Shown here piece after piece: positions 49,964 to 64,000 of a stretch of 64,000 nucleotides of DNA (the first letter of the stretch is position 1; each line of letters opens with the position of its first letter). Source of the stretch: Sedimentisphaerales bacterium (GTDB lineage: Bacteria; Planctomycetota; Phycisphaerae; Sedimentisphaerales; SM23-30); assembly GCA_963666285.1 (NCBI GenBank), contig OY762711.1. The stretch is one strand, 5' to 3'. The notes below the pieces were generated by a model, which saw nothing but the letters and a program-made list of their open reading frames with translations, was not told the DNA's origin and did no database searches. The translations under genes and the position numbers were made by a program.

Positions 49964-51328
49964 TTATTCTTCCGGTTTTTCCGGTAATTTACTAAGCCTT
50001 CTTTCCCGGTTATCATTTTCGAGAACTTTCTGGAACCCGTCCTTTGACATATATTCAGAATGGCCATCCATAAAACCAACAACATAATACGTATTACAAT
50101 TACTTTCAAATCGTTCATAGACACAAATCATTTCAGATCTGGCTTTGTCATTCAGGTCTTTTCCCCTGAAAATATAGCCGGTACCAATATTTTTTAAGGG
50201 GCTGATCAAGCCTTTGGCAGGATAATCAGCTGTGGTAATCAATTCTTCCAAAGACTCAGGCATTTTTCCTTTATGATCATTCATGTGGATACAACAAGCA
50301 GTAGCAATCCCTTTAACATTCAGCATGCTTATTTGAATATCAGCCTGGTGTTTGGCACTACTATAACAATCCATCATAAAAGGAGCGAGGATTTCCCTGA
50401 TCTGAATATTGTTTATGGAGCCTACCAGCCTGCTCCCGGAGCATTCAGGTTTAATGTTCTTTAGCATAGAGTTGATATCAGGATATTTTTCCTTGATCCA
50501 TGGCTCTTCTTTTAACGCGTAGTTTTGTAATAATTCAACCAAAACAATAGCCCGCTGAGCAGCTTCAACACTTTGAGATTGTGCCGTATAGGAAAGATTC
50601 AGTTTCTTGTTCAGATTCAGGCCAAGAGCTGCCCACTGAACCGACCTAGTAAAATCAGCCCCGGTAGCAATATCGTCAGCTTCCCGAAAAGGATAAAAAG
50701 TTTCCTCGATAACACGTTTAAGACTGACAGAAGGTGTAAATAATAACCTGACACCATATTCCTTAACAGTCTCTTCTGCATTTGACACGTCCTGCCGAAC
50801 ACCATCCGTTTTACCTTTGAGTCTCTCAATCGTATCAGATCTTCCAATAAGCAGGGTATCATCAATATCAACCATAGTATCAAGACTAATAAATGGAACA
50901 TTCTTCAATTCGGTAAGATTCAGCATCTGGACAAGTCCTTTTAATGAAGGACAGTCTTTGCCTGGTTCATGAGGAACAACCAGGTAAAATGCAGGTAAAT
51001 CATGCATACTCATAACAAAATTAACATTCTTAATCCCGTCATTTTTGAACTGGGCGAGATAGCCATCGACAACAATCTTAAACGAGTTGATTTTAGCAAT
51101 AGCCTGATCTGCATCTGCCTGATCAAGATACTCTGCTATATAGTACATGAATTCATCAGTTACAGCCTGGGTATCTACACTATTAAGGTCTACACTTAGT
51201 ATTGCTGCCGTTTCATCTTCGAGCCATGGTTCTAATTGCTCATAGCCTGTTGCAGCAGCTAATGAGTTGCAAAGAAAAACTGAAATCATGGCCAAAATTA
51301 CGACATATGCGTTAAATGTTTTATACAT
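49964..51328 (-). CDS. Secreted protein with C-terminal DUF1559/H-X9-DG-like (pilin-related) segment
   Basis: Signal peptide; SMLNVKGIATACCIHMNDHKGKMP and VVGFMDGHSE resemble the planctomycete DUF1559 N- and C-motifs. Confidence 0.6.
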   Translation of the reverse strand: MYKTFNAYVVILAMISVFLCNSLAAATGYEQLEPWLEDETAAILSVDLNSVDTQAVTDEFMYYIAEYLDQADADQAIAKINSFKIVVDGYLAQFKNDGIKNVNFVMSMHDLPAFYLVVPHEPGKDCPSLKGLVQMLNLTELKNVPFISLDTMVDIDDTLLIGRSDTIERLKGKTDGVRQDVSNAEETVKEYGVRLLFTPSVSLKRVIEETFYPFREADDIATGADFTRSVQWAALGLNLNKKLNLSYTAQSQSVEAAQRAIVLVELLQNYALKEEPWIKEKYPDINSMLKNIKPECSGSRLVGSINNIQIREILAPFMMDCYSSAKHQADIQISMLNVKGIATACCIHMNDHKGKMPESLEELITTADYPAKGLISPLKNIGTGYIFRGKDLNDKARSEMICVYERFESNCNTYYVVGFMDGHSEYMSKDGFQKVLENDNRERRLSKLPEKPEE

Positions 51329-51351
51329 TTCTATTACTCCTTATAAAAAGT

Positions 51352-52770
51352 CTATTTGTTCAGTTTAATGCGATAGCCAATGAAATTTGCATTGTCATCC
51401 GGGTCCTGAACATCCAGAATTGCCGTATCTCCTTCCAGACGATAGATGAATTCTTCACCAGTGAATGCATTTTCAGGTAACGGTACATTATTTATATCAG
51501 AAAGCCGTTTTGGCAACTGGTCATATTCGGCAACATACATACGTATTGCTTCGACACATTGCATAGCCTGATCGCGAACCTGGAATCTTGCCACAAGAAG
51601 TTTGCATCTATTCAAAGCGGGAAGAAATTCATAGAATATATTTGGGACAGTCATGTAATGACGTTTCCGGTCTAATTCTTTGCTATATTTTTTCATTCTA
51701 TCGCCTATCTGATGATAAGGCACAAAAAGATATTTGAACATATCATCTCGCAAAGGAAGGTATTGCTTCCATTGAGCCAGCATAACTACCTGGGCAGCAG
51801 GCATCATCTCTACCCTGCGAGAGTCGTAGCCATTTGCCAGAAGATAATTTTTGCCCGACACATATCCTGCGGCAACTATCGCAGCTAAAGGGATGTCATC
51901 ATCTACCATCTGCAGCATTTCGCTGAACTTTTTGTTAGCACGCTCAACGGAGAGTATATCAGTTTCCAGATCATCAATACCATCCTTTACCCACAAGCTC
52001 AATTCATATTCAAATGCCTGATGCATATCAATAAATGGTTGAGGCATTACTTTCAGAGCCCAATAGAGATTCGGACTGTCAGGTTGAGATGCGATGTCTT
52101 CGATTATCCTGTAATTTATTGTCGATATTGCAATAGCGACAAGGTCCTGAATGAGAGTTTTGCCCTTGCTTATATCTTCTGCCAGAGCAAAATTATAGCT
52201 GATCATCTCCAAAGCACCATCATAATCGCCGTCAGCTACTTTCACCCGAGCCTCTAAAGCAATAAGTTTAGCAATATTCTTGTAATCAGACAAGCTCGGC
52301 AGCAACATATTTATGCCGTCTTCTATCGGATCCTGCCAGTCGCAGTCGGTTCGATATGCAGCATGTTTTAAGAAGCTAACAGATGAAACGTTGAAAAACT
52401 TCCTGGCATGATCAAGCTGTTTATTCTTAAATTCATAAAATGGCAACTGGACCAATTCCATACAGTCTAATTCACCCTCCTTAAAATTATGATATTCATC
52501 CAGATCGGCTGGAATCATAGCGTTTAACTTATTCCAGTCAACTGCGGCATTGCCGGGAATAAGGTCGATAATAGGAGGCAACAGCCTGTACTGCAGTGCC
52601 GGGACAGGCTCAGAAGCACCGGAAATGGAAATTTCTACATACTTATCAGGTTCTTTTTCACTATCAGTTTTGTCGGTGGCAATAATTGCCTGTCCTGACA
52701 CAGTACTGCCGGCATACATTGCCAAAACCAGCCATAGTAATATTTGTTTGATAATTTTATTCATCATCAT
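51352..52770 (-). CDS. Secreted helical hypothetical protein (ECF-operon associated)
   Basis: Signal peptide; PALQYRLLP..GNAA, CDWQ, EAIRMY..LP..L..VPLP.NAFTGEEFIY; start at one of the MMM codons. Confidence 0.65.
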   Translation of the reverse strand: MMMNKIIKQILLWLVLAMYAGSTVSGQAIIATDKTDSEKEPDKYVEISISGASEPVPALQYRLLPPIIDLIPGNAAVDWNKLNAMIPADLDEYHNFKEGELDCMELVQLPFYEFKNKQLDHARKFFNVSSVSFLKHAAYRTDCDWQDPIEDGINMLLPSLSDYKNIAKLIALEARVKVADGDYDGALEMISYNFALAEDISKGKTLIQDLVAIAISTINYRIIEDIASQPDSPNLYWALKVMPQPFIDMHQAFEYELSLWVKDGIDDLETDILSVERANKKFSEMLQMVDDDIPLAAIVAAGYVSGKNYLLANGYDSRRVEMMPAAQVVMLAQWKQYLPLRDDMFKYLFVPYHQIGDRMKKYSKELDRKRHYMTVPNIFYEFLPALNRCKLLVARFQVRDQAMQCVEAIRMYVAEYDQLPKRLSDINNVPLPENAFTGEEFIYRLEGDTAILDVQDPDDNANFIGYRIKLNK

Positions 52771-52820
52771 TAATCCCTCATAATTTTCACATAAACAGAC
52801 CAAAAGTCAGTTTGTGTAAT

Positions 52821-53255
52821 TTAACTGTTTAGCATATCTTTAAGAGAATACACCTTGCCATTTTTACCAGTAGATTTCGGTAAAACCTCCAAGCCATGGT
52901 CAAATACCTGTCTGCGCAGCAACAGGTACGAGTTTTCATCCAGCTCATTTACTGGACCTGAAACAACATTAGTTTCAAGGTTTGTCTTGTCAAATTCAGA
53001 ATCTGCATTATCCTGTACAACAAGCTTAATATTACCGAATGACATTTCTGGTACAGTCTGAGACCGGTTATTTGCCATATTCACAAAAGCTAGCACCATA
53101 ACCAAAAGTATCATACAGCCGTTGGAAACCTGCCAGATCCTGGTATTTTTGCGACCCTGCCTGAAGCCAGCTTCATAAGCCACCGCTGCGGGATCGAGCC
53201 CCGGTTCAACTGGAGCAAGGTTCATAAGTTTATTTTCAAATTCATTTATATTCAT
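52821..53255 (-). CDS. Probable membrane anti-sigma factor
   Basis: Directly downstream of ECF sigma; FE..L..L.P N-terminus, AYEAG, single TM. Confidence 0.6.
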   Translation of the reverse strand: MNINEFENKLMNLAPVEPGLDPAAVAYEAGFRQGRKNTRIWQVSNGCMILLVMVLAFVNMANNRSQTVPEMSFGNIKLVVQDNADSEFDKTNLETNVVSGPVNELDENSYLLLRRQVFDHGLEVLPKSTGKNGKVYSLKDMLNS

Positions 53256-53261
53256 GGCAAT

Positions 53262-53744
53262 TCACTCCAATCTATCTTTAAGAGCTTTAATAGCCCTGTT
53301 ATATCTATTGTGCAGGGTTGAGGTTGCTATGCCGGTTATTTCTGAAATTTGCTCAAAGCCCATCTGGCCCCAAAGCCTAAGGGTAACAACTTCGCGAAGT
53401 TCGGTATCAAGTTCAAATAAAGCTTTTTGGACTATTTCGGCGTCCAGCTGATTATCGGTATCCGGCTGAAACCATAATTTACCGTCAACTTTTAGCTTTT
53501 GGACCGCTTTATCTCTGACCTGCTTTTTTCGCAGACGACTGATACAATCGTTTCTAACCGTACGATACAGCCATGCCTTAATATTAACCGGCATATTTTT
53601 CTGGCTGATCAGCTTTACAAACGCTTCCTGAACAACATCTTCGGCATAATTTCCGAGCCATTGCCGGGCGTACAGACACAACCCGGCTGAATATTCGGTA
53701 AAATATTGCTGAATATGTGATGTCCTGGAGGGCAGTCTGTCCAT
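53262..53744 (-). CDS. ECF RNA polymerase sigma factor
   Basis: AEDVVQEAF, AWLYRTVRN (region 2); REVVTLRLW..MGFEQISE (region 4). Confidence 0.9.
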   Translation of the reverse strand: MDRLPSRTSHIQQYFTEYSAGLCLYARQWLGNYAEDVVQEAFVKLISQKNMPVNIKAWLYRTVRNDCISRLRKKQVRDKAVQKLKVDGKLWFQPDTDNQLDAEIVQKALFELDTELREVVTLRLWGQMGFEQISEITGIATSTLHNRYNRAIKALKDRLE

Positions 53745-53890: not shown

Positions 53891-55813
53891 TTATTTCAAA
53901 AATCTAGTATTACCCGAGCGGCGTGTGACACCGATTTTGTCCATATAATCAAGTATCGGCAAGGCATATTTGCGAGTTGTATCGAGCAGATATTTCATCT
54001 TAACGCTTTCGAGCCTACCCTGCCCTTCCCCGTTGACATGATCGATAATTCTGCGTTTGGCCTCTTCAATTGCTTCACTATGGAAATAAACCTTCCGTTC
54101 AACCTCAATAATTATTTTCTGCTCGGTGAGAATAGCAATGGTTTTATCATATTCACTTTGAGATGCATTAACCATGCTGCGGATGTCATCCGGATTTGGC
54201 GGAGAGAACAGGTTGTCTTTATAGACAGCTTCAACTTTATCCAGTAAAGCCTGCTGGGCCGGGTCATACTGTTCCTGGTGAGACGTCAGGGCAAACAGTT
54301 GATTTTTCAATAGCAGTTTACCTTCACTAATAGCAAGTTTTACAACTGCATCAAAAAGCGTTTTCTCCAGATCGCTCTGCTGCAGCAGAAGATCACGCTC
54401 CATGCCCAGTCGATCAGGCATTTGTTTGTGAAAGACCTCTAGTTTGCCATAAATATACTCAAGAACATCGTTATACACCTGAGCATGAAGATATTGTTCG
54501 TTAGCAACCTGGATAACAGTATTGCTTTCGACAAACCTGGCCAGAATATTCTTTACAGAATCGGGTTCCAGCTTGGTCCGCAATGCGATCTGCCTGATTG
54601 ACAAAACAGACCATGGATCATCTTTCAGGCAATATTCGATAAAAGACCTATTCTCGCATACTGCATTTGCCCAGCATTTTATTGCATCGATTGAAGATAT
54701 CCTGCTGCGTTTTAGTTTTTTCGGCAGTGGTTCTATGACAGTACCACCACCAACGGTCTGGACCGGACCGGTAGAACGCAAGATAAACCTGTCATTGGGA
54801 CCGGCAACTATTGGCTGATCAGCTAATAGCTGTACAAATACTTCCTGACCGGCAAGAGCGACAGTGTCTTCTAAAAGATATATCTTGGCGGTTACCTCAC
54901 TGGTACCTGTGTGAAACTTCATACGTTTGCCATGTTTGACAACAAGACCATCCAAATTAAGAATCTTTAGAGAACATAAAAACCACTCAGAAGGTTCAAA
55001 ATATTCACCTTTTGTAAGTACATTACCACGCTCGATATCGTTGAAATCCAGCTGCGGCAGGTTTAAGGCGGCACACTGGCCGGAACGGACAGTATCATCA
55101 TCACGACCATAGACCTGGATAGCCTTGATACGGCTTTTTGTGCCTTTTGGCAAAAGAGTAACCTCATCGCCAACTCTGGCAGAACCACTTACAGGGATGC
55201 CGCTAATAACATTACCAAAGCCTTTAACCGAGAAGAATTTTTCAACCGGCTGGCGAAATACGCCTTCTGTGCTTTTGGGCTCAATACTCTTTATCAGGGA
55301 TTTGAGAGAATCATAAAAGAAATCAAAGCCATCGCCCGTGATATTTGACATCGGGCAGATATCTGCACCCGCCAGAAAGGTATCTTTGAGATAATCTTTG
55401 AGTTCGGATATCACCTGCTCAACTCTTTCCGGAGAGACAATATCGGTTTTGGTAAGAGCTACCATGCCATGTTTGACACCAAGCAGGGTAAGAATATTGA
55501 GATGTTCCCGCGTCTGGGGCATTATACTATCATCAGCAGCAACAACAAAGATAACACCATCAATACCGGAAGCTCCGGCTACCATGGTCTTAATAAAATT
55601 TTCATGGCCGGGAACATCCACTATACCAACTTCAAGATCGCCTAGCCGACAAGGGGCAAAGCCAAGCTCTATGCTCATACCGCGTTCTTTTTCCTGCTTG
55701 AGCCGGTCGGTTTCGCAACCGGTAAGAAGCCTGATAAGTGCAGTTTTGCCGTGGTCAATATGACCGGCAGTACCTAGCGTTATATTTATTTGAGATGCCT
55801 GTTTATCGTTCAT
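53891..55813 (-). CDS. selB: Selenocysteine-specific elongation factor SelB
   Basis: GTAGHIDHGKT, EKERGMSIELGF, DVPGHENF, TKTD; C-terminal winged helices ending TTRKYALPILDYMD..GVTRR. Confidence 0.97.
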   Translation of the reverse strand: MNDKQASQINITLGTAGHIDHGKTALIRLLTGCETDRLKQEKERGMSIELGFAPCRLGDLEVGIVDVPGHENFIKTMVAGASGIDGVIFVVAADDSIMPQTREHLNILTLLGVKHGMVALTKTDIVSPERVEQVISELKDYLKDTFLAGADICPMSNITGDGFDFFYDSLKSLIKSIEPKSTEGVFRQPVEKFFSVKGFGNVISGIPVSGSARVGDEVTLLPKGTKSRIKAIQVYGRDDDTVRSGQCAALNLPQLDFNDIERGNVLTKGEYFEPSEWFLCSLKILNLDGLVVKHGKRMKFHTGTSEVTAKIYLLEDTVALAGQEVFVQLLADQPIVAGPNDRFILRSTGPVQTVGGGTVIEPLPKKLKRSRISSIDAIKCWANAVCENRSFIEYCLKDDPWSVLSIRQIALRTKLEPDSVKNILARFVESNTVIQVANEQYLHAQVYNDVLEYIYGKLEVFHKQMPDRLGMERDLLLQQSDLEKTLFDAVVKLAISEGKLLLKNQLFALTSHQEQYDPAQQALLDKVEAVYKDNLFSPPNPDDIRSMVNASQSEYDKTIAILTEQKIIIEVERKVYFHSEAIEEAKRRIIDHVNGEGQGRLESVKMKYLLDTTRKYALPILDYMDKIGVTRRSGNTRFLK

Positions 55814-55823
55814 TCTTATTGTT

Positions 55824-57224
55824 TTAACCCAAAATTTCAGTTAAAGCTTCAACTACTATCTTTGCATCCCCCTCCAGCAAAGACCTGGGATCCAGCAGTA
55901 TTTTATCTTCCTGGATACGGGTAAATATCGGAGTACTATAATGCCTGAGTCTGTTTGCAATTATAACACTACTAATCTTATTACTAAATATTGTCACTAA
56001 CCTGGTTTTGAGGTTCTGAGTCGGAAGAGAGCCGCTACCTGTTTGAGAAAATCCATCGACGCTCTCAATTTCAGCATCTAACTTTGCCTTACGCAGTTTT
56101 GATGCAATTTTTGCCGCTTCGCTTTTGATAGAATCGTACGACCGCAGCATCATCCGCAAGGTTGGAACCTGCTGTAGTGCCTTTTCTTCATTCATAAACA
56201 ACCTCAAAGTTGCTTCCAGGGCAGCAAGAGTCATTTTATCTACTCTAACTATGCGGGCAAACTGGTTCTTTTTGACCTTTTTAACCAGATCAGCCCTGCC
56301 GAGAATAATCCCGGCCTGGGAAGCACCGATAAGCTTGTCACCACTGGAACAGAGAATATCGGCACCATCGGCAATAGATTCGGCAAGAGTTGGCTCTTTG
56401 GCAAAACCATATTTTGAGAAATCAACCAGCGAACCTGCACCAACATCATCAAAAGCAATAAGGCCATTGGCATGAGCCAGATCAACAATCGGTTTAAGCG
56501 GTACTTCACTGCTGAATCCCTGGATTTTGTAATTGCTCGGATGAACTCGCAGAATAGCGGCGGTTTCTTCTGAAATAGCATTTTCATAATCACGCAAATG
56601 GGTTTTATTGGTAGTACCAACTTCGACCAGTTTTGCCCCGCTGAACGCCATTACATCCGGCAATCTGAAAGAACCGCCAATTTCGACAAGCTGACCGCGT
56701 GAAACTATAACCTCTTTGCCCTCGGCGATGGTATTTAATACCAGTGCAGTTGCTGCGGCATTGTTATTTACAATCGTAGCCGCTTCGGCACCGGTAAGAA
56801 TAGAAAACATCTTTTCTATATGGTTGTCGCGACTACTGCGTTTTCCATCTTCGATACCAAGCTGCAGCAGTGAATAGCCGCTGAGTTCGCTTTTTATCTG
56901 ATCTACAGCCGCGTCAGGCAATACCGCCCTGCCAAGCCCGGTATGAAGTACTATCCCGGCAGCATTAATAACCTTGCGATAGAAAGGACTTACCAGTGAA
57001 CCAAGTTCAGATTGAATATCGCCTACAACAGCATCTCTAATATCAAGCACATCCTTTGAGCAGCTGCCGGCTAATATCTCCTTGCGTTTTTCTTCAATAA
57101 CAGAACGACAAACCTTCGTTAATATTGCCTGAGAAAACGATTCCTTGTAAGAATCCGGCAATAGCTGACAGACAGAATCCACCGAAGGTATCTGCCTTAA
57201 CATTTCCTGCTGAGAAGCATCCAT
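55824..57224 (-). CDS. selA: L-seryl-tRNA(Sec) selenium transferase
   Basis: VINAAGIVLHTGLGRA, NNNAAA, SRGQLVEIGGSFR, EVGTTNKTH, VHPSNY, SGDKLIG (PLP Lys). Confidence 0.97.
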   Translation of the reverse strand: MDASQQEMLRQIPSVDSVCQLLPDSYKESFSQAILTKVCRSVIEEKRKEILAGSCSKDVLDIRDAVVGDIQSELGSLVSPFYRKVINAAGIVLHTGLGRAVLPDAAVDQIKSELSGYSLLQLGIEDGKRSSRDNHIEKMFSILTGAEAATIVNNNAAATALVLNTIAEGKEVIVSRGQLVEIGGSFRLPDVMAFSGAKLVEVGTTNKTHLRDYENAISEETAAILRVHPSNYKIQGFSSEVPLKPIVDLAHANGLIAFDDVGAGSLVDFSKYGFAKEPTLAESIADGADILCSSGDKLIGASQAGIILGRADLVKKVKKNQFARIVRVDKMTLAALEATLRLFMNEEKALQQVPTLRMMLRSYDSIKSEAAKIASKLRKAKLDAEIESVDGFSQTGSGSLPTQNLKTRLVTIFSNKISSVIIANRLRHYSTPIFTRIQEDKILLDPRSLLEGDAKIVVEALTEILG

Positions 57225-57248: not shown

Positions 57249-57785
57249 TTATTTGATTTCAACCCATTCTTCTTTCTTTTCAACTTTGAACGGGCCTAGA
57301 TCAGCATCTAAAACAACTTTTACTTTGCCGCTGAAATTATTAGGAGCTCGCCACGAACTCCGGCATGTGCCGCCTCAGCCAAAGGTAAAATCGCCAGAAC
57401 CGAGCAGTTTTTCCTGTTCATCATAAATCTTATATGATGGAGCATTCTGCATACTACCATTTCTTTCTGCTGCAGGTAAATAGGTTTCGCCGGCATTTCC
57501 CTCTAAAACAGCCCCCAGGTATAAAGTTCGACCGCTGACGGTAACATCTGCCCTGGCAACCAGCGGCTCACCAGGTTTTGAATCATTTTTCCAAGGGGAA
57601 GTTGATATTGAAAGCTCCCATATATTGCCCTGATCATCTTTTACAGATAGCCCAGAGTCTGAGATAACTTTAGCTGACGGATTCATAAACATAAAAAAGA
57701 GGAAAAGACCAATAATTACAAAACCAACAATAAAAATGCCTTTAGGCCCGGATTTATTCATTTCTTCAAAACTTTTTTCTGTCAT
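57249..57785 (-). CDS. Candidate membrane-anchored selenoprotein (178 aa, Sec137 in FG-U-GGTC)
   Basis: ATG 57785 after GGAGAG; TM GIFIVGFVIIGLFLFFMFM; TGA 57375-57377 followed by 41 open codons GGTCRSSWRAPNNFSGKVKVVLDADLGPFKVEKKEEWVEIK to TAA 57249-57251; SECIS-like hairpin; heads selAB. Confidence 0.85.
57343..57361 (-). promoter_or_regulatory. SECIS-like hairpin 1
   Basis: GGAGUUCG-UGG-CGAGCUCC, 8-bp stem starting 13 nt after the UGA. Confidence 0.8.
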
Positions 57786-58389: not shown

Positions 58390-59520
58390 ATGAAAAATCT
58401 TCTACTTGCACTAATCGTTATAACAGCAGCGATAACCGGCTGCGAAAAAAAGGAAACCACATCCAGCGATAATACCACAAATCAAACACCATCAAAAGCA
58501 GTAACATTAAAAGTTGGGCATGTCGGCCACGACCACCACCTGGCATTGTATATGGCATGTGATTACGCTGATGAACTAAGTATAAATGGCGTCAGACTGG
58601 AGAAAGTTGAGGACATGAAATATTATACACTCTATAAAAACGAGACCAAACTTGCAGACGTGGAAATTGTAAAAGTTGGCGGCGGAGCCAAGATGCCTAC
58701 CGCACTGGCACAGGATGTCATAGATATTGGATTTGGCGGAGTTGCACCGGTTATTGCAGCAGTTGATAAAAACGCACCTGTAAAATTAATCAGCCCACTA
58801 CACTCCAAGGGTGATATGTTTGTGATGAAAACCGACTCCGAGGTAAACAATTGGGACGATTTTATTAAAATGGCAAAAGAAACCAAAACACCTATCAGAA
58901 TAGGATACAAAAGTCCATCAGCAGTCGCCAAGTTAATCTTTGAAGATGCTCTAAGTAATGCAGGGATCTCTTTTGGACAGGACCCTGCCCAGACCGATAT
59001 TAATGTGTTAATGGTTAATACCAAAGGCGGCGGCAAACTGAATGTTGCCCTGGAAAGCAATATTATTGATGGTTATGCAGGAAATAACCCATTCCCTGCT
59101 ATTGCCGTTAATAAGAAAATGGGAAAAGTAATTGCCGACCTGGAAGACCTTCCGCCTGGAAACTTCAAGAACCATCCATGCTGCTGCATTGCAGCTAACG
59201 ATAAGGCCCTGGCGGAAAAAACTGAAGCTATCGAGGCAATGCTGACACTATTCAAAAAGGCAACCGATTTAATCAACAACGACCTGAATAAATCAGTTGC
59301 AGCTGCGACGCACTGGATTGGTACATCTGAAGAAGTCGAAAAGATGAGTATTCCGACCAGCGGATACAGTATGCAGGTCACTGAGGATTGGCAGGCGACC
59401 ATGGATAAATGGTTCGAGGCTATGAAGGCTCTTGACACCTATCAAGGTGAACTAAAGGACATACCTGCTAAACAGGCCTGTGATAAAGTATACGATATGT
59501 CAATTTTGAAAAAGATATAA
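58390..59520 (+). CDS. ABC transporter substrate-binding lipoprotein (NitT/TauT family) with GHDHH and HPCCC motifs
   Basis: Lipobox AAITGC from ATG 58390 after AGGGA; LKVGHVGHDHHLAL; IDIGFGGVAP; HPCCCI. Confidence 0.88.
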   Translation: MKNLLLALIVITAAITGCEKKETTSSDNTTNQTPSKAVTLKVGHVGHDHHLALYMACDYADELSINGVRLEKVEDMKYYTLYKNETKLADVEIVKVGGGAKMPTALAQDVIDIGFGGVAPVIAAVDKNAPVKLISPLHSKGDMFVMKTDSEVNNWDDFIKMAKETKTPIRIGYKSPSAVAKLIFEDALSNAGISFGQDPAQTDINVLMVNTKGGGKLNVALESNIIDGYAGNNPFPAIAVNKKMGKVIADLEDLPPGNFKNHPCCCIAANDKALAEKTEAIEAMLTLFKKATDLINNDLNKSVAAATHWIGTSEEVEKMSIPTSGYSMQVTEDWQATMDKWFEAMKALDTYQGELKDIPAKQACDKVYDMSILKKI

Positions 59521-59533
59521 ACAGCTATAAATA

Positions 59534-60373
59534 ATGAACAATCCAAAGATAAGAAAATCAAATATCATCGGCTGGCTGATTATGCCAATAGTGCTGCTGG
59601 GAATATGGCAATTACTAGCGGTTAAACTTAACCAGCCATGGCTGATACCTGCACCGGTAAAGATAATAGAACAGTTGACCCACCCACTGCGAATTCATTT
59701 TTCGTCCGGGTCACTTTTTAGCAATACAATTATCAGCCTTCTGAGAGTATTTATCGGTTTTGCGCTAGCAGCTATTATCGGAGTTTCAGCAGGATTACTG
59801 CTGGGTTCGATCCGGCCGCTTAGACAATGGTTTGAACCAACAATAGAGATTATCAGGCCGTTATGCCCAATTGCCTGGCTGCCGTTTGCGATTGCGGTAT
59901 TCAAACTGAACACTCTGCCTAATCTTTTTGGTATCAGGTTTACTCATACCATACTGGACCAGGTACAGCTGGGTATGATATTTGTAATTTTTATCGGCGG
60001 ATTCTTTCCGATCTTCACTAACACTATGGATGGAGTAATAGGAGTGAGAAAGAATTTTGTCAGGCTGGCCCAGACACTTGGCGCAACCAGAGTCCAGGTA
60101 TTCCTGCAAATATATCTACCTTCTGCTATGCCTCAAATTCTTACCGGATTGCGACAGGGACTCGGCTTGTGCTGGTTTGTTATTATTGCAGCCGAAATGA
60201 TGGTTGGCTCTGATACAGGCATAGGCTATTTACTGATGTATGCCGCAGATAACTCGGCAATGGATATCGTGATATCATGCATGATTATCATAGGTGTGAT
60301 CGGCGCTGTAATGAGTACTGCTATGCGTATACTGATACACAAAAAGGTTGCATGGAAAGGAAAAGAGTTTTAA
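59534..60373 (+). CDS. ABC transporter permease (NitT/TauT, SsuC-like)
   Basis: SLLRVFIGF, RPLCPIAWLP, AQTLGA (EAA region), IAAEMM..GIGYL. Confidence 0.92.
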   Translation: MNNPKIRKSNIIGWLIMPIVLLGIWQLLAVKLNQPWLIPAPVKIIEQLTHPLRIHFSSGSLFSNTIISLLRVFIGFALAAIIGVSAGLLLGSIRPLRQWFEPTIEIIRPLCPIAWLPFAIAVFKLNTLPNLFGIRFTHTILDQVQLGMIFVIFIGGFFPIFTNTMDGVIGVRKNFVRLAQTLGATRVQVFLQIYLPSAMPQILTGLRQGLGLCWFVIIAAEMMVGSDTGIGYLLMYAADNSAMDIVISCMIIIGVIGAVMSTAMRILIHKKVAWKGKEF

Positions 60374-61149
60374 TGCAAACAGAACTACAACATCCTAATA
60401 CATGCACAAGTGTTATACCTCTAATCAGTTTTACAGGTATCAGTAAAGCATTCACCTCCGATTCCGGCCGAATAGTACAGGCTTTGACAGATGTATCATT
60501 TTCGGTGCGACCTGGTGAATTTATTACAATTGTTGGTGCAACCGGTTCCGGTAAAACCACTTTACTGAACCTGATAGCCCGTCTGGAACATTCAGATGCA
60601 GGAATAATAGAATACAACAACTCACTGGATATAAAAAATGAAATATCTTATGTATTCCAGCATTATACCCTGCTGCCCTGGTTAAACATTCAGAAAAACA
60701 TCTCTTTGGGACTGAAGCTGCGTAAAATACCTCAAAAACAACGAATTAAAACCGCATGCAGGTTAATGAAAGATACCGGGCTAAAAGGTTTTGAGCGGGC
60801 GTACCCACATGAGCTTTCCGGTGGAATGAGACAGCGTGCCGCAATTGCCCAGGCCCTGGCAACAGAACCAAAACTACTGCTTATGGACGAACCATTCGGG
60901 TCACTTGATGATGGCACACGAAGCGACTTACAGCAGATGTTAATAAATATCCACCAGCAAAGCAAAACTACTATTCTATTTGTTACTCATAACATTGACG
61001 AAGCAATATTGCTGGCTGACAGGATAATTGTTTTAAGCAAATCGCCTGGAAATATATTAGAAGATATTGAAATTAACCTGGCAAAACCAAGAAACAGAAA
61101 CAATAACGATTTTACTAAACTTTTTTTGCAGATACGGAATTTATTATGA
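60373..61149 (+). CDS. ABC transporter ATP-binding protein (NitT/TauT, SsuB-like)
   Basis: GATGSGKTT, VFQHYTLLPW, YPHELSGGMRQR, LLMDEPF, FVTHNIDEA; TAATG coupling to the permease. Confidence 0.95.
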   Translation: MQTELQHPNTCTSVIPLISFTGISKAFTSDSGRIVQALTDVSFSVRPGEFITIVGATGSGKTTLLNLIARLEHSDAGIIEYNNSLDIKNEISYVFQHYTLLPWLNIQKNISLGLKLRKIPQKQRIKTACRLMKDTGLKGFERAYPHELSGGMRQRAAIAQALATEPKLLLMDEPFGSLDDGTRSDLQQMLINIHQQSKTTILFVTHNIDEAILLADRIIVLSKSPGNILEDIEINLAKPRNRNNNDFTKLFLQIRNLL

Positions 61150-62777
61150 CAATTAATAAAGAAAGACGTAAACGCGTAATGCAGCGTTCTATCAAACTGG
61201 GACATTGTGTATGCGACCCTAAACAACCCTGTCCTTGTGAGATATTCAAGGAAAAAAACATATGCTTATGTGCAGGTGAGAGACTGGAGGAACCAACTGG
61301 AGAAGTTCGCTTAACCCAAATGGTGGAAAAGGCAGGATGCGGCTCCAAAATTGACCAGGCTTTCCTCAAGGAAGTGCTTGGCGATTTGAAAATGCCGGAA
61401 GACACTAACGTTCTAGTTGGCGTACCTGCCGGTGATGATGCCGGGGTATACGATATGGGCAATGGAACCTGCCTGGTTCAAACAGTTGATGTATTTACCC
61501 CAACTGTTGATGATCCATATATGTTCGGCCAGATTGCAGCAGCAAATTCTGTTAGTGATGTATATGCTATGGGCGGCATACCCAAAACCGCCCTTTCGAT
61601 AATCGGCTTTCCGGTACGCAAAGTCCCTGATAGAGTAATGAAAGAGATCATCCGAGGTGGAATTGATAAAATGGCAGAAGCCGGTGTGTCTATTATTGGC
61701 GGACATAGTATCAACGACCCGGAAATAAAAGCAGGCTATGCAGTAACTGGAACAATAGATAAAGAAAAAGTAATTACTAATGATGGCATAAAGGTTGACG
61801 ATGTATTCATCCTTACTAAAGCATTAGGGACAGGAATAATCTCATTTGCATCTCAAATAGGACGAGCGTCTAAAAGTGCAATGGAAGCTGCCGCAAAGTC
61901 AATGGCAACCCTGAATAAAACAGCATGCGAGTTAATGGTGAAATACAATGCCCATGCCGCCAGTGATGTTACCGGCTTTAGCTTGATAGGCCATTTATCA
62001 GAAATGACAAGACGTAGCGGGGTAGATGTCGAGATAACCTGGGATAAGCTGCCCTGGCTGCCGGAGGCACTTGATTATGCCGCTCAAGGAATATATCCCG
62101 GGGCAATCGAACGAAACAAGGAATCATGTGGTCATACCATTATTGTCGATGATAATGTGAGCGAAGCAATGGCTGATATCTGTTTTGACGCTCAGACTTC
62201 CGGCGGCATGCTAATTGCAGCAGCACCAGATAAAGCTGAAAAACTATTAGGTGAACTGAAAGCATCTGGACTGGAATATGCTGCCATCATTGGTAGGACC
62301 ATTTCAAGAGGCTCAGGAAAAATTAACATTGTAACGGACCGGACAAAATCATTTACAGCTTCTAATGCCGCTCAAAACATACAGGAAACTTCAGAACCTG
62401 ACCCGGAGCCATGTTGCGGGACAGGAGCAGCATCTGCAATAAAAGCACAAACAGCTAATGCAGAAAGCTGTTGTTGCGGTCCAGAACCGGATGGGCAAGA
62501 TAACAATAATGAACCAATCAAAGCTATCGAAACCAGTTTTTCCAGCTTTATGAGTAAGGTAAACAGACCCGGCGGACTTGACGCATTCACCAAGCAAGCG
62601 GTGAACCTGGCATTGTCTATCCATTCGAAATGTAAACCTTGTCTCAAAACACATATTGCAAAAGCACGTAAAATGGGCTATACTGAATCTGAGATTGACG
62701 AAGCAGCATGGATGGCAATCGCTTTTGGCGGTTCACCGGCCATGATGTTTTATAAAGAAGTGAAAGCAGAGGTATAA
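61146..62777 (+). CDS. selD: Selenide, water dikinase (Cys form) fused to an N-terminal CxC/CPC/CxC domain and a C-terminal AhpD/CMD domain
   Basis: RLTQ..AGCGSK (Cys65, TGC 61338-61340), DDAGV, TVDVF, NSVSDVYAMGG, GGHS, DVTGFSLIGH, DAQTSGGML; ATGA overlap with the ATPase gene. Confidence 0.95.
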   Translation: MTINKERRKRVMQRSIKLGHCVCDPKQPCPCEIFKEKNICLCAGERLEEPTGEVRLTQMVEKAGCGSKIDQAFLKEVLGDLKMPEDTNVLVGVPAGDDAGVYDMGNGTCLVQTVDVFTPTVDDPYMFGQIAAANSVSDVYAMGGIPKTALSIIGFPVRKVPDRVMKEIIRGGIDKMAEAGVSIIGGHSINDPEIKAGYAVTGTIDKEKVITNDGIKVDDVFILTKALGTGIISFASQIGRASKSAMEAAAKSMATLNKTACELMVKYNAHAASDVTGFSLIGHLSEMTRRSGVDVEITWDKLPWLPEALDYAAQGIYPGAIERNKESCGHTIIVDDNVSEAMADICFDAQTSGGMLIAAAPDKAEKLLGELKASGLEYAAIIGRTISRGSGKINIVTDRTKSFTASNAAQNIQETSEPDPEPCCGTGAASAIKAQTANAESCCCGPEPDGQDNNNEPIKAIETSFSSFMSKVNRPGGLDAFTKQAVNLALSIHSKCKPCLKTHIAKARKMGYTESEIDEAAWMAIAFGGSPAMMFYKEVKAEV

Positions 62778-62793: not shown

Positions 62794-62890
62794 GGAGGTG
62801 ACAGGTAACTGGTGTTGCTCCTGGTCTTCAAAACCAGTGTGGGGCGGTAAGCCCGTCCCGGGTGGGTTCGATTCCCATTCGCCTCCGCCA
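62794..62890 (+). tRNA. selC: tRNA-Sec (anticodon UCA)
   Basis: 8-bp acceptor GGAGGTGA/TCGCCTCC + GCCA; 6-bp D stem with TGGT loop; CTGGT-CTTCAAA-ACCAG; long variable arm GGGGCGG/CCGTCCC; GTGGG-TTCGATT-CCCAT. Confidence 0.97.
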
Positions 62891-62914
62891 TTTTAGACTC
62901 TCCTACCTGAATAT

Positions 62915-62935
62915 TAGCACATTTAATAGCACATT
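62915..62935. repeat. Tandem 9-bp direct repeat (possible integrase arm-type sites)
   Basis: TAGCACATT at 62915-62923 and 62927-62935, between the tRNA 3' end and the integrase-like ORF. Confidence 0.45.
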
Positions 62936-63014
62936 ACTCTTTTATCCTACCTACCATTCTGATATAATATTTCTATCTGAATTTTAAATTATTCATCATT
63001 TATCAGGCTTAATA

Positions 63015-64000
63015 ATGGCTAAAAAAACTGGCAAAAAAGCAAACTATATCATCTTTGGAAACCAAGAAGTTAAAACTGTTTTCGATGGAAAAGAAATTGG
63101 AGTAAGCCTTGATAGAACCACTCAATCTCACTATACAATGCTTCCGCAAAAATCAGGAAGAACCAAACGAAAATGGTTAGGAAAGCATACAGGTAAAGCC
63201 GTTGCAAGTTTCTGGGCTTTAGTAGAAGAGCTCAATAACAAACAAACACCTACAACAACCATAATCGCTCAACAAGAAGACATATCCCCCCTGTATGAAC
63301 CAACGGATAAAATGTCTATGGATGAAGTTGTCAGGTCCAATCAAATTAAGTTAAGAAAGACTGGCAAAGTAATACTTACAACAAAGGAGTCAGAGCATAT
63401 ACAATGGCTATTCAAGGAACTCCAAAATCCCAAGGAATTGGCTCGTAAAACTGGCATCGAAGAGTTTACAGAGTTTGGAAAACTATTAGCCAAAGATACC
63501 AACATACCTCTTAAAGACCTTCTTAAAAACTATCTTAATAAAAAGAAAACCGTTTCAAAAACAACCAGACAACAAAGCAAAACATTTTTTAATAATTTCA
63601 TTAAAGCTATTGACTGCAAGTATGTCGATGAAATCACCCTGAAAGACATACACAACTATGAAGACTATATATACTCAAAAGGATTAGCCGCGAAAAGCAT
63701 CATTAACCAAATATGCACTATATCTACTATCATAAATTACAACACAGGAAGATATCACTGCCCTCATCTATTACAAGTGCATAGTTGGCTCCAGAAAGGA
63801 ATAGACAAACCTACGGAAGATAAACTTTACAATCCAAAATTGATTTCAGTTGTTGATTTTATGGCTTTATACGAAGTGGCTCCATTCAAATGGAAGCTGT
63901 TTCTATTACTTGGTCTGAATTGTGCAATGTATCCAATTGACATTTCCAACTTTCAACTAAAACACCTCAATATCGAAGATGGAACGGTTGCATTTAGACG
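63015..64000 (+). CDS. Tyrosine recombinase/integrase-like protein (partial, runs off window end; not in ORF track)
   Basis: Open from ATG 63015 to the end (328 codons); SAM-like core VDEITLKDIHNYEDYI..KGLAAKSIINQI; box-I-like FLLLGLNCAMYPIDISNF..LNIEDG; starts 124 nt after the tRNA. Confidence 0.75.
   Translation, partial: MAKKTGKKANYIIFGNQEVKTVFDGKEIGVSLDRTTQSHYTMLPQKSGRTKRKWLGKHTGKAVASFWALVEELNNKQTPTTTIIAQQEDISPLYEPTDKMSMDEVVRSNQIKLRKTGKVILTTKESEHIQWLFKELQNPKELARKTGIEEFTEFGKLLAKDTNIPLKDLLKNYLNKKKTVSKTTRQQSKTFFNNFIKAIDCKYVDEITLKDIHNYEDYIYSKGLAAKSIINQICTISTIINYNTGRYHCPHLLQVHSWLQKGIDKPTEDKLYNPKLISVVDFMALYEVAPFKWKLFLLLGLNCAMYPIDISNFQLKHLNIEDGTVAFR

Follow-up and report, generated by a model that had tools for sequence, protein, structure and literature searches.

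Do bacteria possess a transporter dedicated to selenium? According to a 2026 review (PMC13188914), a high-affinity transport system specific for selenium has yet to be identified in prokaryotes. PMC11097638, a knockout study from 2024 in which none of five candidate transporters proved to be required, likewise states that a dedicated prokaryotic one is not known. The question is raised by a locus of a Sedimentisphaerales bacterium (GenBank assembly GCA_963666285.1, contig OY762711.1), contained in a stretch of 64,000 nucleotides that we call the window. Here the genes for a substrate-binding lipoprotein, a permease and an ATP-binding cassette (ABC) ATPase, at positions 58,390 to 61,149, lead directly into selD. 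We think it reasonably probable that they encode an optional NitT/TauT-type importer of a small selenium anion that feeds SelD. The most likely cargo is selenite or hydroselenide, which SelD would convert to selenophosphate. The locus offers a testable candidate for a dedicated bacterial selenium transporter, and the question can be addressed directly, as the binding protein should be soluble and purifiable and has three named candidate ligand residues.

An initial annotation of the window had described a contiguous run of binding protein, permease, ATPase, selD and the gene for the selenocysteine (Sec) tRNA (tRNA-Sec), and this run was matched exactly by the open reading frame, ARAGORN and Rfam calls (Table 1). 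The binding-protein and permease genes are separated by 13 nt (59521-59533), the permease and ATPase genes share a TAATG overlap, the ATPase gene and selD share an ATGA overlap, and tRNA-Sec starts 16 nt past the selD stop codon. The overlaps and tight spacing of the co-transcription type thus stand; translational coupling to selD, as originally proposed, may accompany them. A PNPOx-like gene intervenes between ATPase and selD in many relatives. Promoter and terminator scans of the locus gave chance-level matches only, and an Rfam scan found no RNA leader. The three transporter genes form a complete NitT/TauT set in one operon, consisting of an NMT1_2-type binding protein (PF13379, 73.3 bits; cut-off 24.7), a BPD_transp_1 permease (PF00528, 65.8 bits; cut-off 26.4) and an ABC ATPase (PF00005, 111.4 bits; cut-off 25).

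The link to selenium is conserved within the order. In a sample of 201 genomes including this one, 14 carried the binding protein and 48 carried selD. selD was present in 13 of the 14 carriers, compared with 35 of 187 non-carriers (Fisher p 2.4e-8, a value inflated by kinship and physical linkage). Within genera, the carriers sit inside the selD-positive subset (3/15 within 5, 2/13 within 7 and 1/4 within 1; joint p ~0.0015); a repeat at the family level re-sampled nearly the same genomes and adds genus sizes only. The contiguous order binding protein-permease-ATPase-(PNPOx-like)-selD is more than chance, because 10 of the 13 further carriers share it. Among the remaining three, the contig of G086 ends before selD, and the transporters of G170 and G186 lead into a block of methyltransferase and double-cubane genes. 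A probable GUGGxC-motif selenoprotein gene, of the kind described below, flanks the transporter in G186, the sole carrier of the order lacking a selD match.

We examined 105 loci, in which 100 full open matches collapsed into 75 clusters at 90% identity. Of these, 21 lay beside sel genes, 7 beside sel and double-cubane/methyltransferase genes, 10 beside double-cubane/methyltransferase genes only and 8 beside neither; 29 were too short. At 50% identity or above, each of the 32 informative clusters adjoins sel genes or the selD-associated double-cubane/methyltransferase block. Thus, both by these clusters and by the carrier counts above, orthologues in the close family are mostly linked to selenium genes; the outcome named in the initial annotation as refuting it, orthologues mostly unlinked, was not seen there. 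Below 50% identity, 6 of 14 informative clusters have such neighbors. Within the sel operon the module is found in no fewer than two different slots, either preceding or following the double-cubane block. In 12 of the 14 carriers the transporter is accompanied by a predicted outer-membrane barrel (PF13557), this genome having none. The barrel gene by itself was rejected as a selenium marker, as G046 has it with neither transporter nor selD.

What might the binding protein hold? Its AlphaFold model (pLDDT 88.9) has its best fold match in the Zn-bound Staphylococcus aureus protein 3UN6 (Foldseek E 3.6e-18; VIA Z 29.1, root-mean-square deviation 3.0 over 286 residues), with which the nitrate-binding domain of CmpC (CmpC-CRD) ties in the fold comparison (Z 28.5 vs 29.1). 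PDB searches with the single sequence or a close profile gave no match; wider profiles did. In a profile alignment (E 9.8e-24) the His of 3UN6 falls on His49 and the Cys-Cys on Cys264-Cys265, so that both features of this class, a His in the first loop and a vicinal Cys-Cys at the hinge, are present. From the same alignment we infer that the Cys-Cys lies in the binding cleft.

The motifs reported earlier were located at residues 46-50 (GHDHH) and 262-266 (HPCCC) of the binding protein and 108-115 (RPLCPIAW) of the permease. Thiol-based capture had been proposed, and of the triple Cys the first two hold: His47, Asp48, His49, His262, Cys264 and Cys265 do not vary in any of 24 sequences at 34-64% identity, in contrast to Cys266. 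HPCCC is present in 120 of the 120 closest homologues; distant ones carry M, V or G at the third Cys. The triple Cys was therefore discarded as the key motif, the third Cys not being kept beyond close relatives. Nor does plain thiol capture fit well: a metal-thiolate site is more probable than a free triple Cys, because His49, Cys264 and Cys265 match the His and Cys-Cys of 3UN6. Section 2.5 of PMC13592312 models such sites with a metal on two Cys and one or two His, and PMC10418091 states that zinc held by His-Cys-Cys prefers soft ligands (S or Se). Among 150 representatives the Cys-Cys is widespread and therefore marks the metal-site class, not selenium as such. The binding protein shares fold and His/Cys-Cys with 3UN6 and the binding proteins linked to clade B carbon monoxide dehydrogenase (CODH) (PMC13592312, PMC6344411). 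It differs from 3UN6 in sequence (17-18% identity), in an additional N-terminal beta-insertion and in His47, Asp48 and His262, and from the clade B proteins in its context, which is selenium machinery instead of CODH.

Among the more distant homologues, eight Cys-Cys binding proteins (P0227, P0257, P0263, P0267, P0284, P0294, P0302 and P0310) match the profile in swapped order, with the N-terminal half of the query at their C-terminus, which suggests circular permutation. In five others (P0256, P0264, P0272, P0275 and P0285) the Cys-Cys is lost, with the His loop altered in those sequences printed; homologues of this kind possibly have a different ligand. A plasmid search returned only two matches, at 25%.

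The permease aligns to CmpB (E 3.9e-31) and NrtB (E 1.3e-28). Its Arg108 and Arg207 align to the CmpB channel residues Arg129 and Arg210, both named in PMC13287603 as channel residues of anion recognition in CmpB/NrtB. In redundant match sets, Arg108 is kept in 64/64 close and 25/26 distant matches and Arg207 in 62/62 and 24/24. Cys111, flanked by two channel residues, is kept in 62/64 close and 23/26 distant matches, and Cys213 is present in close relatives. The window system thus shares superfamily, fold and the two channel arginines with NrtABCD, CmpABCD, SsuABC and TauABC. In contrast to these, Cys111 replaces a Pro of the channel segment and the binding protein has a metal-type site.

SelD has Cys65 at the catalytic Cys/Sec position. 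Its N-terminal extension (residues 21-42) carries CxC-x5-CPC-x8-CxC, the six Cys being present in 45-46 of 46 aligned sequences, and a C-terminal AhpD/CMD domain contains a CxxC (496-499). A ferredoxin-thioredoxin-reductase-like identity of the extension was unsupported (BLAST E 0.79; hhalign probability 6.9%). Stand-alone PF02943 genes adjoin three distant transporter homologues.

From these elements a route can be proposed. In most relatives the predicted PF13557 barrel, which this genome lacks, would admit the solute. The lipoprotein would hold a zinc-type ion on His49, Cys264 and Cys265, as 3UN6 does, and the selenium species would bind at the open site or to the thiolates. The permease would then pass the anion inward via Arg108 and Arg207, with Cys111 beside the path and the ATPase supplying power. 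The CxxC AhpD-like domain fused to SelD, together with the six-Cys extension, may reduce or hand over the incoming selenium, and SelA, SelB and tRNA-Sec would insert Sec into the GUGGxC family and a second SelD. The transporter module would be optional and seems to alternate with the methyltransferase/double-cubane block at the same locus.

The same His/Cys-Cys site might instead hold the cargo itself. The system would then import a transition metal (Zn, Ni, Co or Fe) or a metal chelate to supply Cys-rich metalloproteins encoded at the locus, namely the SelD extension, the double-cubane protein and a ferredoxin-like membrane protein. We consider this reading unlikely. It draws on the Zn-bound state of 3UN6, the best structural match, and on PMC6344411, where metal import was put forward for proteins resembling 3UN6 that are encoded next to clade B CODH. 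Two distant loci also point this way, L133 with CooT/CooC-like and DUF364 genes as neighbors and L127 with DUF1847, a radical SAM gene and, in convergent orientation, a ZnuA-type system. However, the fold class comprises anion binders (NrtA, CmpA, SsuA), the permease keeps both anion-recognition arginines, and section 2.5 of PMC13592312 argues against nickel for such proteins. Moreover, a need for metal would not restrict close orthologues to genomes with selD.

Next, we consider the double-cubane genes (NF040772) that recur near the transporter. Of the 201 genomes sampled in the order, 32 have this gene, and 31 of those 32 also have selD. Among selD genomes it is present in 3 of 13 transporter carriers vs 28 of 35 non-carriers (p 4.8e-4). 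Seven selD genomes had neither module by HMM; two of these have the block, two are cut by a contig end, two have a broken selD and one has another SelD type. In a survey of 20 regions from 19 transporter-less genomes, 15 regions had a double-cubane gene in the run leading into selD. The block mostly contains a SAM methyltransferase, the double-cubane gene, two HGD-D-like genes and an activator, and is often headed by a DUF3034 barrel. Some loci hold both modules, in either order. The block of this genome (C1:379443-384705), which has no DUF3034, lies 4 Mb away. No double-cubane match was found in 10 of the 14 carriers of the order (76-99% complete) or in 4 of 11 distant carriers; because of the former, the link of the transporter is to selD. 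The simplest inference is that transporter and block are interchangeable selenium-supply modules with differential loss. This alternation suggests a testable role of double-cubane enzymes in selenium supply, which, if true, would be the first physiological role of these proteins. A preprint by Haft raises selenium consumption by double-cubane proteins, 955 of 970 of which are in SelD genomes. Under the supply and the consumption view alike, the transporter tracks selD and not the double-cubane gene.

These counts also bear on a possible kinship with the SAO system (NF040735, NF040727, NF040733 and NF040729), likewise a NitT/TauT-group importer of anaerobes with a Cys-Cys binding protein and frequent double-cubane neighbors (Haft and Gwadz, bioRxiv 10.1101/2022.07.06.499078). 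The best NCBIfam models, all below cut-off, were SsuA_fam and then SaoX for the binding protein, SaoP for the permease and SaoA for the ATPase. Membership in SAO, which the initial annotation had brought up for comparison, was rejected, because the scores fall below all three cut-offs (SaoX 45.5/300, SaoP 141.8/295 and SaoA 235.6/360 bits); SaoB gave no match at E 0.001. Locus, Sec content and double-cubane dependence differ as well. Even so, among known systems the SAO transporter and 3UN6-type proteins are those that the window system would most resemble in action. SAO has a second binding protein, whereas the window system has one. From the nine-gene SAO locus, SaoL, SaoT, SaoC, SaoE and SaoD were not seen among the subset of neighbors scanned in the window and its relatives; the window neighbors are selA, selB, selD, tRNA-Sec and a 136-aa open reading frame. 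SAO is reported always to accompany NF040772 (Haft preprint). In the window system, by contrast, the double-cubane gene is dispensable, Sec was not found, and the permease has no Cys at AEM positions 221-223, the presumed place of the gate (MetI Met163). Unlike SAO, the window system resides in diderm bacteria at a selABD-tRNA-Sec locus that as a rule also contains a gene for an outer-membrane barrel.

A transporter outside SAO could still act in a SAO-like manner, importing an organometallic compound or methylated metalloid for the double-cubane reductase and methyltransferase, with proximity to selD secondary to those enzymes. The model ranking above, a methyltransferase or double-cubane gene near 17 of 46 informative clusters and the co-occurrence of SAO with double-cubane genes (Haft preprint) are consistent with this reading. 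It is nonetheless distinctly unlikely, given the carriers lacking a double-cubane match, the anti-correlation of the two modules among selD genomes and the absence of Cys or Sec at the presumed gate.

Sulfur is a further candidate cargo. Import of sulfide, thiosulfate, a thiol or a sulfonate for Fe-S clusters or cysteine would make selenium incidental. NitT/TauT relatives do carry sulfonates, and the distant locus L129 has a YedE-like pair of PF04143 sulfur-transport genes and a TrxB-like gene upstream of its transporter. 3UN6 presumably stems from a TauABC-like operon of S. aureus. A TauABC-like operon of this species is under CymR control and repressed by sulfide (PMC5480029). We hold sulfur import to be very unlikely, however: SsuA_fam (64.8/163.5) and TauA (20/304) scored far under their cut-offs, as ntrB (133.7/209), TauC (122.9/342) and SsuC (89.7/347) also remained below theirs, no sulfur assimilation or desulfonation genes were seen beside close orthologues, and restriction to selD genomes would be unexpected.

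Selenium transport by YedE/FdhT has likewise been proposed from linkage to selD (Lin et al. 2015, PMC5322559), and YedE/FdhT knockouts were inconclusive (PMC11097638). YedE is a YeeE-type membrane protein (PF04143), whereas the window system is a binding-protein-dependent ABC importer whose permease gave no PF04143 match. PMC5322559 proposes YedE only, and the term 'ABC' occurs 0 times. Type 1 mlp clusters for methyl-selenium/sulfur metabolism (PMC10418091) are resembled by the homologous locus L088 (see below), while the window locus lacks those genes; in the main text of that paper 'ABC transporter' has 0 occurrences. The literature searched, two relevant papers and the bioRxiv supplements apart, gave no description of this transporter or of the GUGGxC selenoprotein.

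How far does the link to selenium extend? In L093/L094 (44% identical) the order is selA-selB-transporter-barrel-selD-tRNA-Sec, with a Sec-containing SelD 38% identical to that of the window. In L101, L102 and L105 a third SelD type (42%) follows on the same strand, four genes or ~3.5 kb further on. In L088:1598-12887 the transporter lies among FTR-like, double-cubane, activator, methyltransferase, corrinoid, MtaA-like and RamA/AcsV-like genes; corrinoid/MtaA-like/double-cubane clusters have been tied to methyl-selenium use (PMC10418091). L129, with its YedE-like pair and TrxB-like gene upstream, also counts among the distant loci in favor of selenium. A FastTree tree of 64 sequences, with short close loci omitted, resolved three clades, the two selD-linked ones being sisters (support 1.0). 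In a sample of the phylum, 11 of 301 genomes carry the transporter. All nine Planctomycetota carriers outside the order have selD, with no sel genes in the stretches examined around their transporters. In the phylum of G495, 2 of 251 genomes are carriers; G495 has two selD genes, both away from the transporter. selA occurs in 221 of the 301 phylum-sample genomes, a surprisingly high share. That an unrelated transporter once landed in the sel island, and was inherited or transferred with it, is barely credible. In its favor, linkage and co-occurrence depend on each other, tRNA-Sec is a hotspot of integration in this genome and the linked clades are sisters. Against it, the link outlasts rearrangement, the barrel gene lying upstream in one clade but downstream in the other, as well as different operon slots, it spans three SelD types (38-100% identity), and 0 of 32 close orthologues with adequate flank lie outside the locus.

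Several observations weigh against an importer of selenium feeding SelD. The selenium cargo is putative, genomic context being the evidence for it, and the His/Cys-Cys site is common to 3UN6, SaoX and the clade B CODH-linked binding proteins. Cys-to-Sec variants, which the initial annotation suggested seeking in homologues, did not appear: among redundant tblastn matches, none was found in 134 for the binding protein, where the single stop was TAA, and no in-frame TGA in 121 for the permease. Cys-Cys-terminated fragments were absent among the binding-protein representatives. In the order, selD gave no match in G186, an assembly of 670 contigs that is 89% complete, and beyond it carrier G745 gave no selD, selB or double-cubane match. 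Eight of the 14 informative clusters below 50% identity have no sel or double-cubane/methyltransferase neighbor; L133 and L127, with genes of metal handling around them, are two of these eight. Such distant cases weigh most against a reading confined to selenium. In the phylum sample, 211 of 221 selA genomes lack the transporter, and co-occurrence is weak (p ~0.05) because of the 73% selA background. The selD link may be a single ancient association kept through rearrangement, because the two linked clades are sisters. The double-cubane protein may be a consumer of selenium and not a supplier, in which case the argument from redundancy would lose force. Finally, this genome has a YedE/YeeE-like pair elsewhere. 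The latter, a split PF04143 pair, is closer to TsuA than to the selenium YedE. It lies at C1:4763503-4764608 (L160) and adjoins ArsR-like and CoA-disulfide-reductase-like genes, both assigned by eye.

For what would selenium be imported? Formate dehydrogenase and MvhD/FlpD were rejected as the demand, the genome having no PF00384 or PF02662 match. Selenate is an unlikely substrate, because no molybdopterin oxidoreductase or FlpD match was found in the genome. Instead, the gene between selA and the transporter has its in-frame TGA in the context F-G-U-G-G-x-C-x-x-W, and in a read-through scan the frame runs 41 more codons to a TAA. Four paralogues read past a TGA in G-U-G-G-x-C (C1 +1429000, +5361314, -4460985 and -498572), giving five copies with the family motif [YF]-G-U-G-G-x-C-x-[YS]-S-W-R. 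In related loci, 74 of 74 motif matches (redundant) have TGA and none Cys, and no Cys-containing homologue was found among 12 candidates of 103-331 aa. Across 21 hand-picked related sequences, 95% of the cells of the hairpin past the UGA are paired and 10 double changes occur; the 60-nt Sec insertion sequence (SECIS) region alone folds no better than shuffles (z -0.95). NCBIfam has no model for the protein, and database copies of these genes stop at the UGA. The gene probably represents a new selenoprotein family, and the GUGGxC genes appear to be the main selenium demand of the genome.

A more far-reaching proposal is possible but tentative: the system would be the first dedicated high-affinity bacterial selenium importer, its lipoprotein capturing a selenium anion on zinc bound by His/Cys-Cys and delivering it to a SelD that has reductase-like domains of its own. 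The system would be interchangeable with a supply module of DUF3034 barrel, methyltransferase and double-cubane genes, and both would serve exported GUGGxC selenoproteins that databases do not list.

Table 1. Features of the transporter-selD locus (window positions) and loci exemplifying the alternative block
Feature	Position or locus	Strand	Remarks
Substrate-binding lipoprotein, NMT1_2/SsuA-like fold	58390..59520	+	376 aa, lipobox ITG-C18
NitT/TauT-type permease	59534..60373	+	279 aa
ABC ATPase	60373..61149	+	258 aa; Walker A, LSGGM, Walker B and H-loop present
SelD	61146..62777	+	543 aa; TIGR00476 365.6 bits (cut-off 125)
tRNA-Sec, anticodon TCA	62794..62890	+	ARAGORN; Rfam RF01852
selA	55824..57224	-	TIGR00474 542.6 bits (cut-off 267.9); divergent from transporter operon
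selB	53891..55813	-	TIGR00475 335.9 bits (cut-off 242.25); likewise divergent
Probable selenoprotein (GUGGxC), between selA and transporter	57249..57785	-	in-frame TGA 57375-57377
SECIS-like 8-pair hairpin	57343..57361	-	begins 13 nt past UGA; compensatory changes across relatives
Alternative-block examples	L140-L155, L159, L028		upstream of selD in most transporter-less relatives

Directly downstream of selB (49964-53744, minus strand) lie genes judged from sequence to encode an ECF sigma factor-like protein, an anti-sigma-like protein and two exported proteins, a set not seen in 16 related loci searched. The second selD of this genome (C1:1953363-1954280, L035) carries TGA in its catalytic site, and its N-terminal extension, rich in Cys and His, is a different one; this type adjoins the transporter in L093/L094 and is also found in G495. 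At tRNA-Sec sits an element of ~8.7 kb with an integrase-like gene (window 62863-64000; C1:4446863-4455578). The integration site is the 3' end of tRNA-Sec, and a 30-bp repeat of that end marks the far side of the element, which displaces the small protein and PF12801 ferredoxin-like genes that follow tRNA-Sec in relatives.

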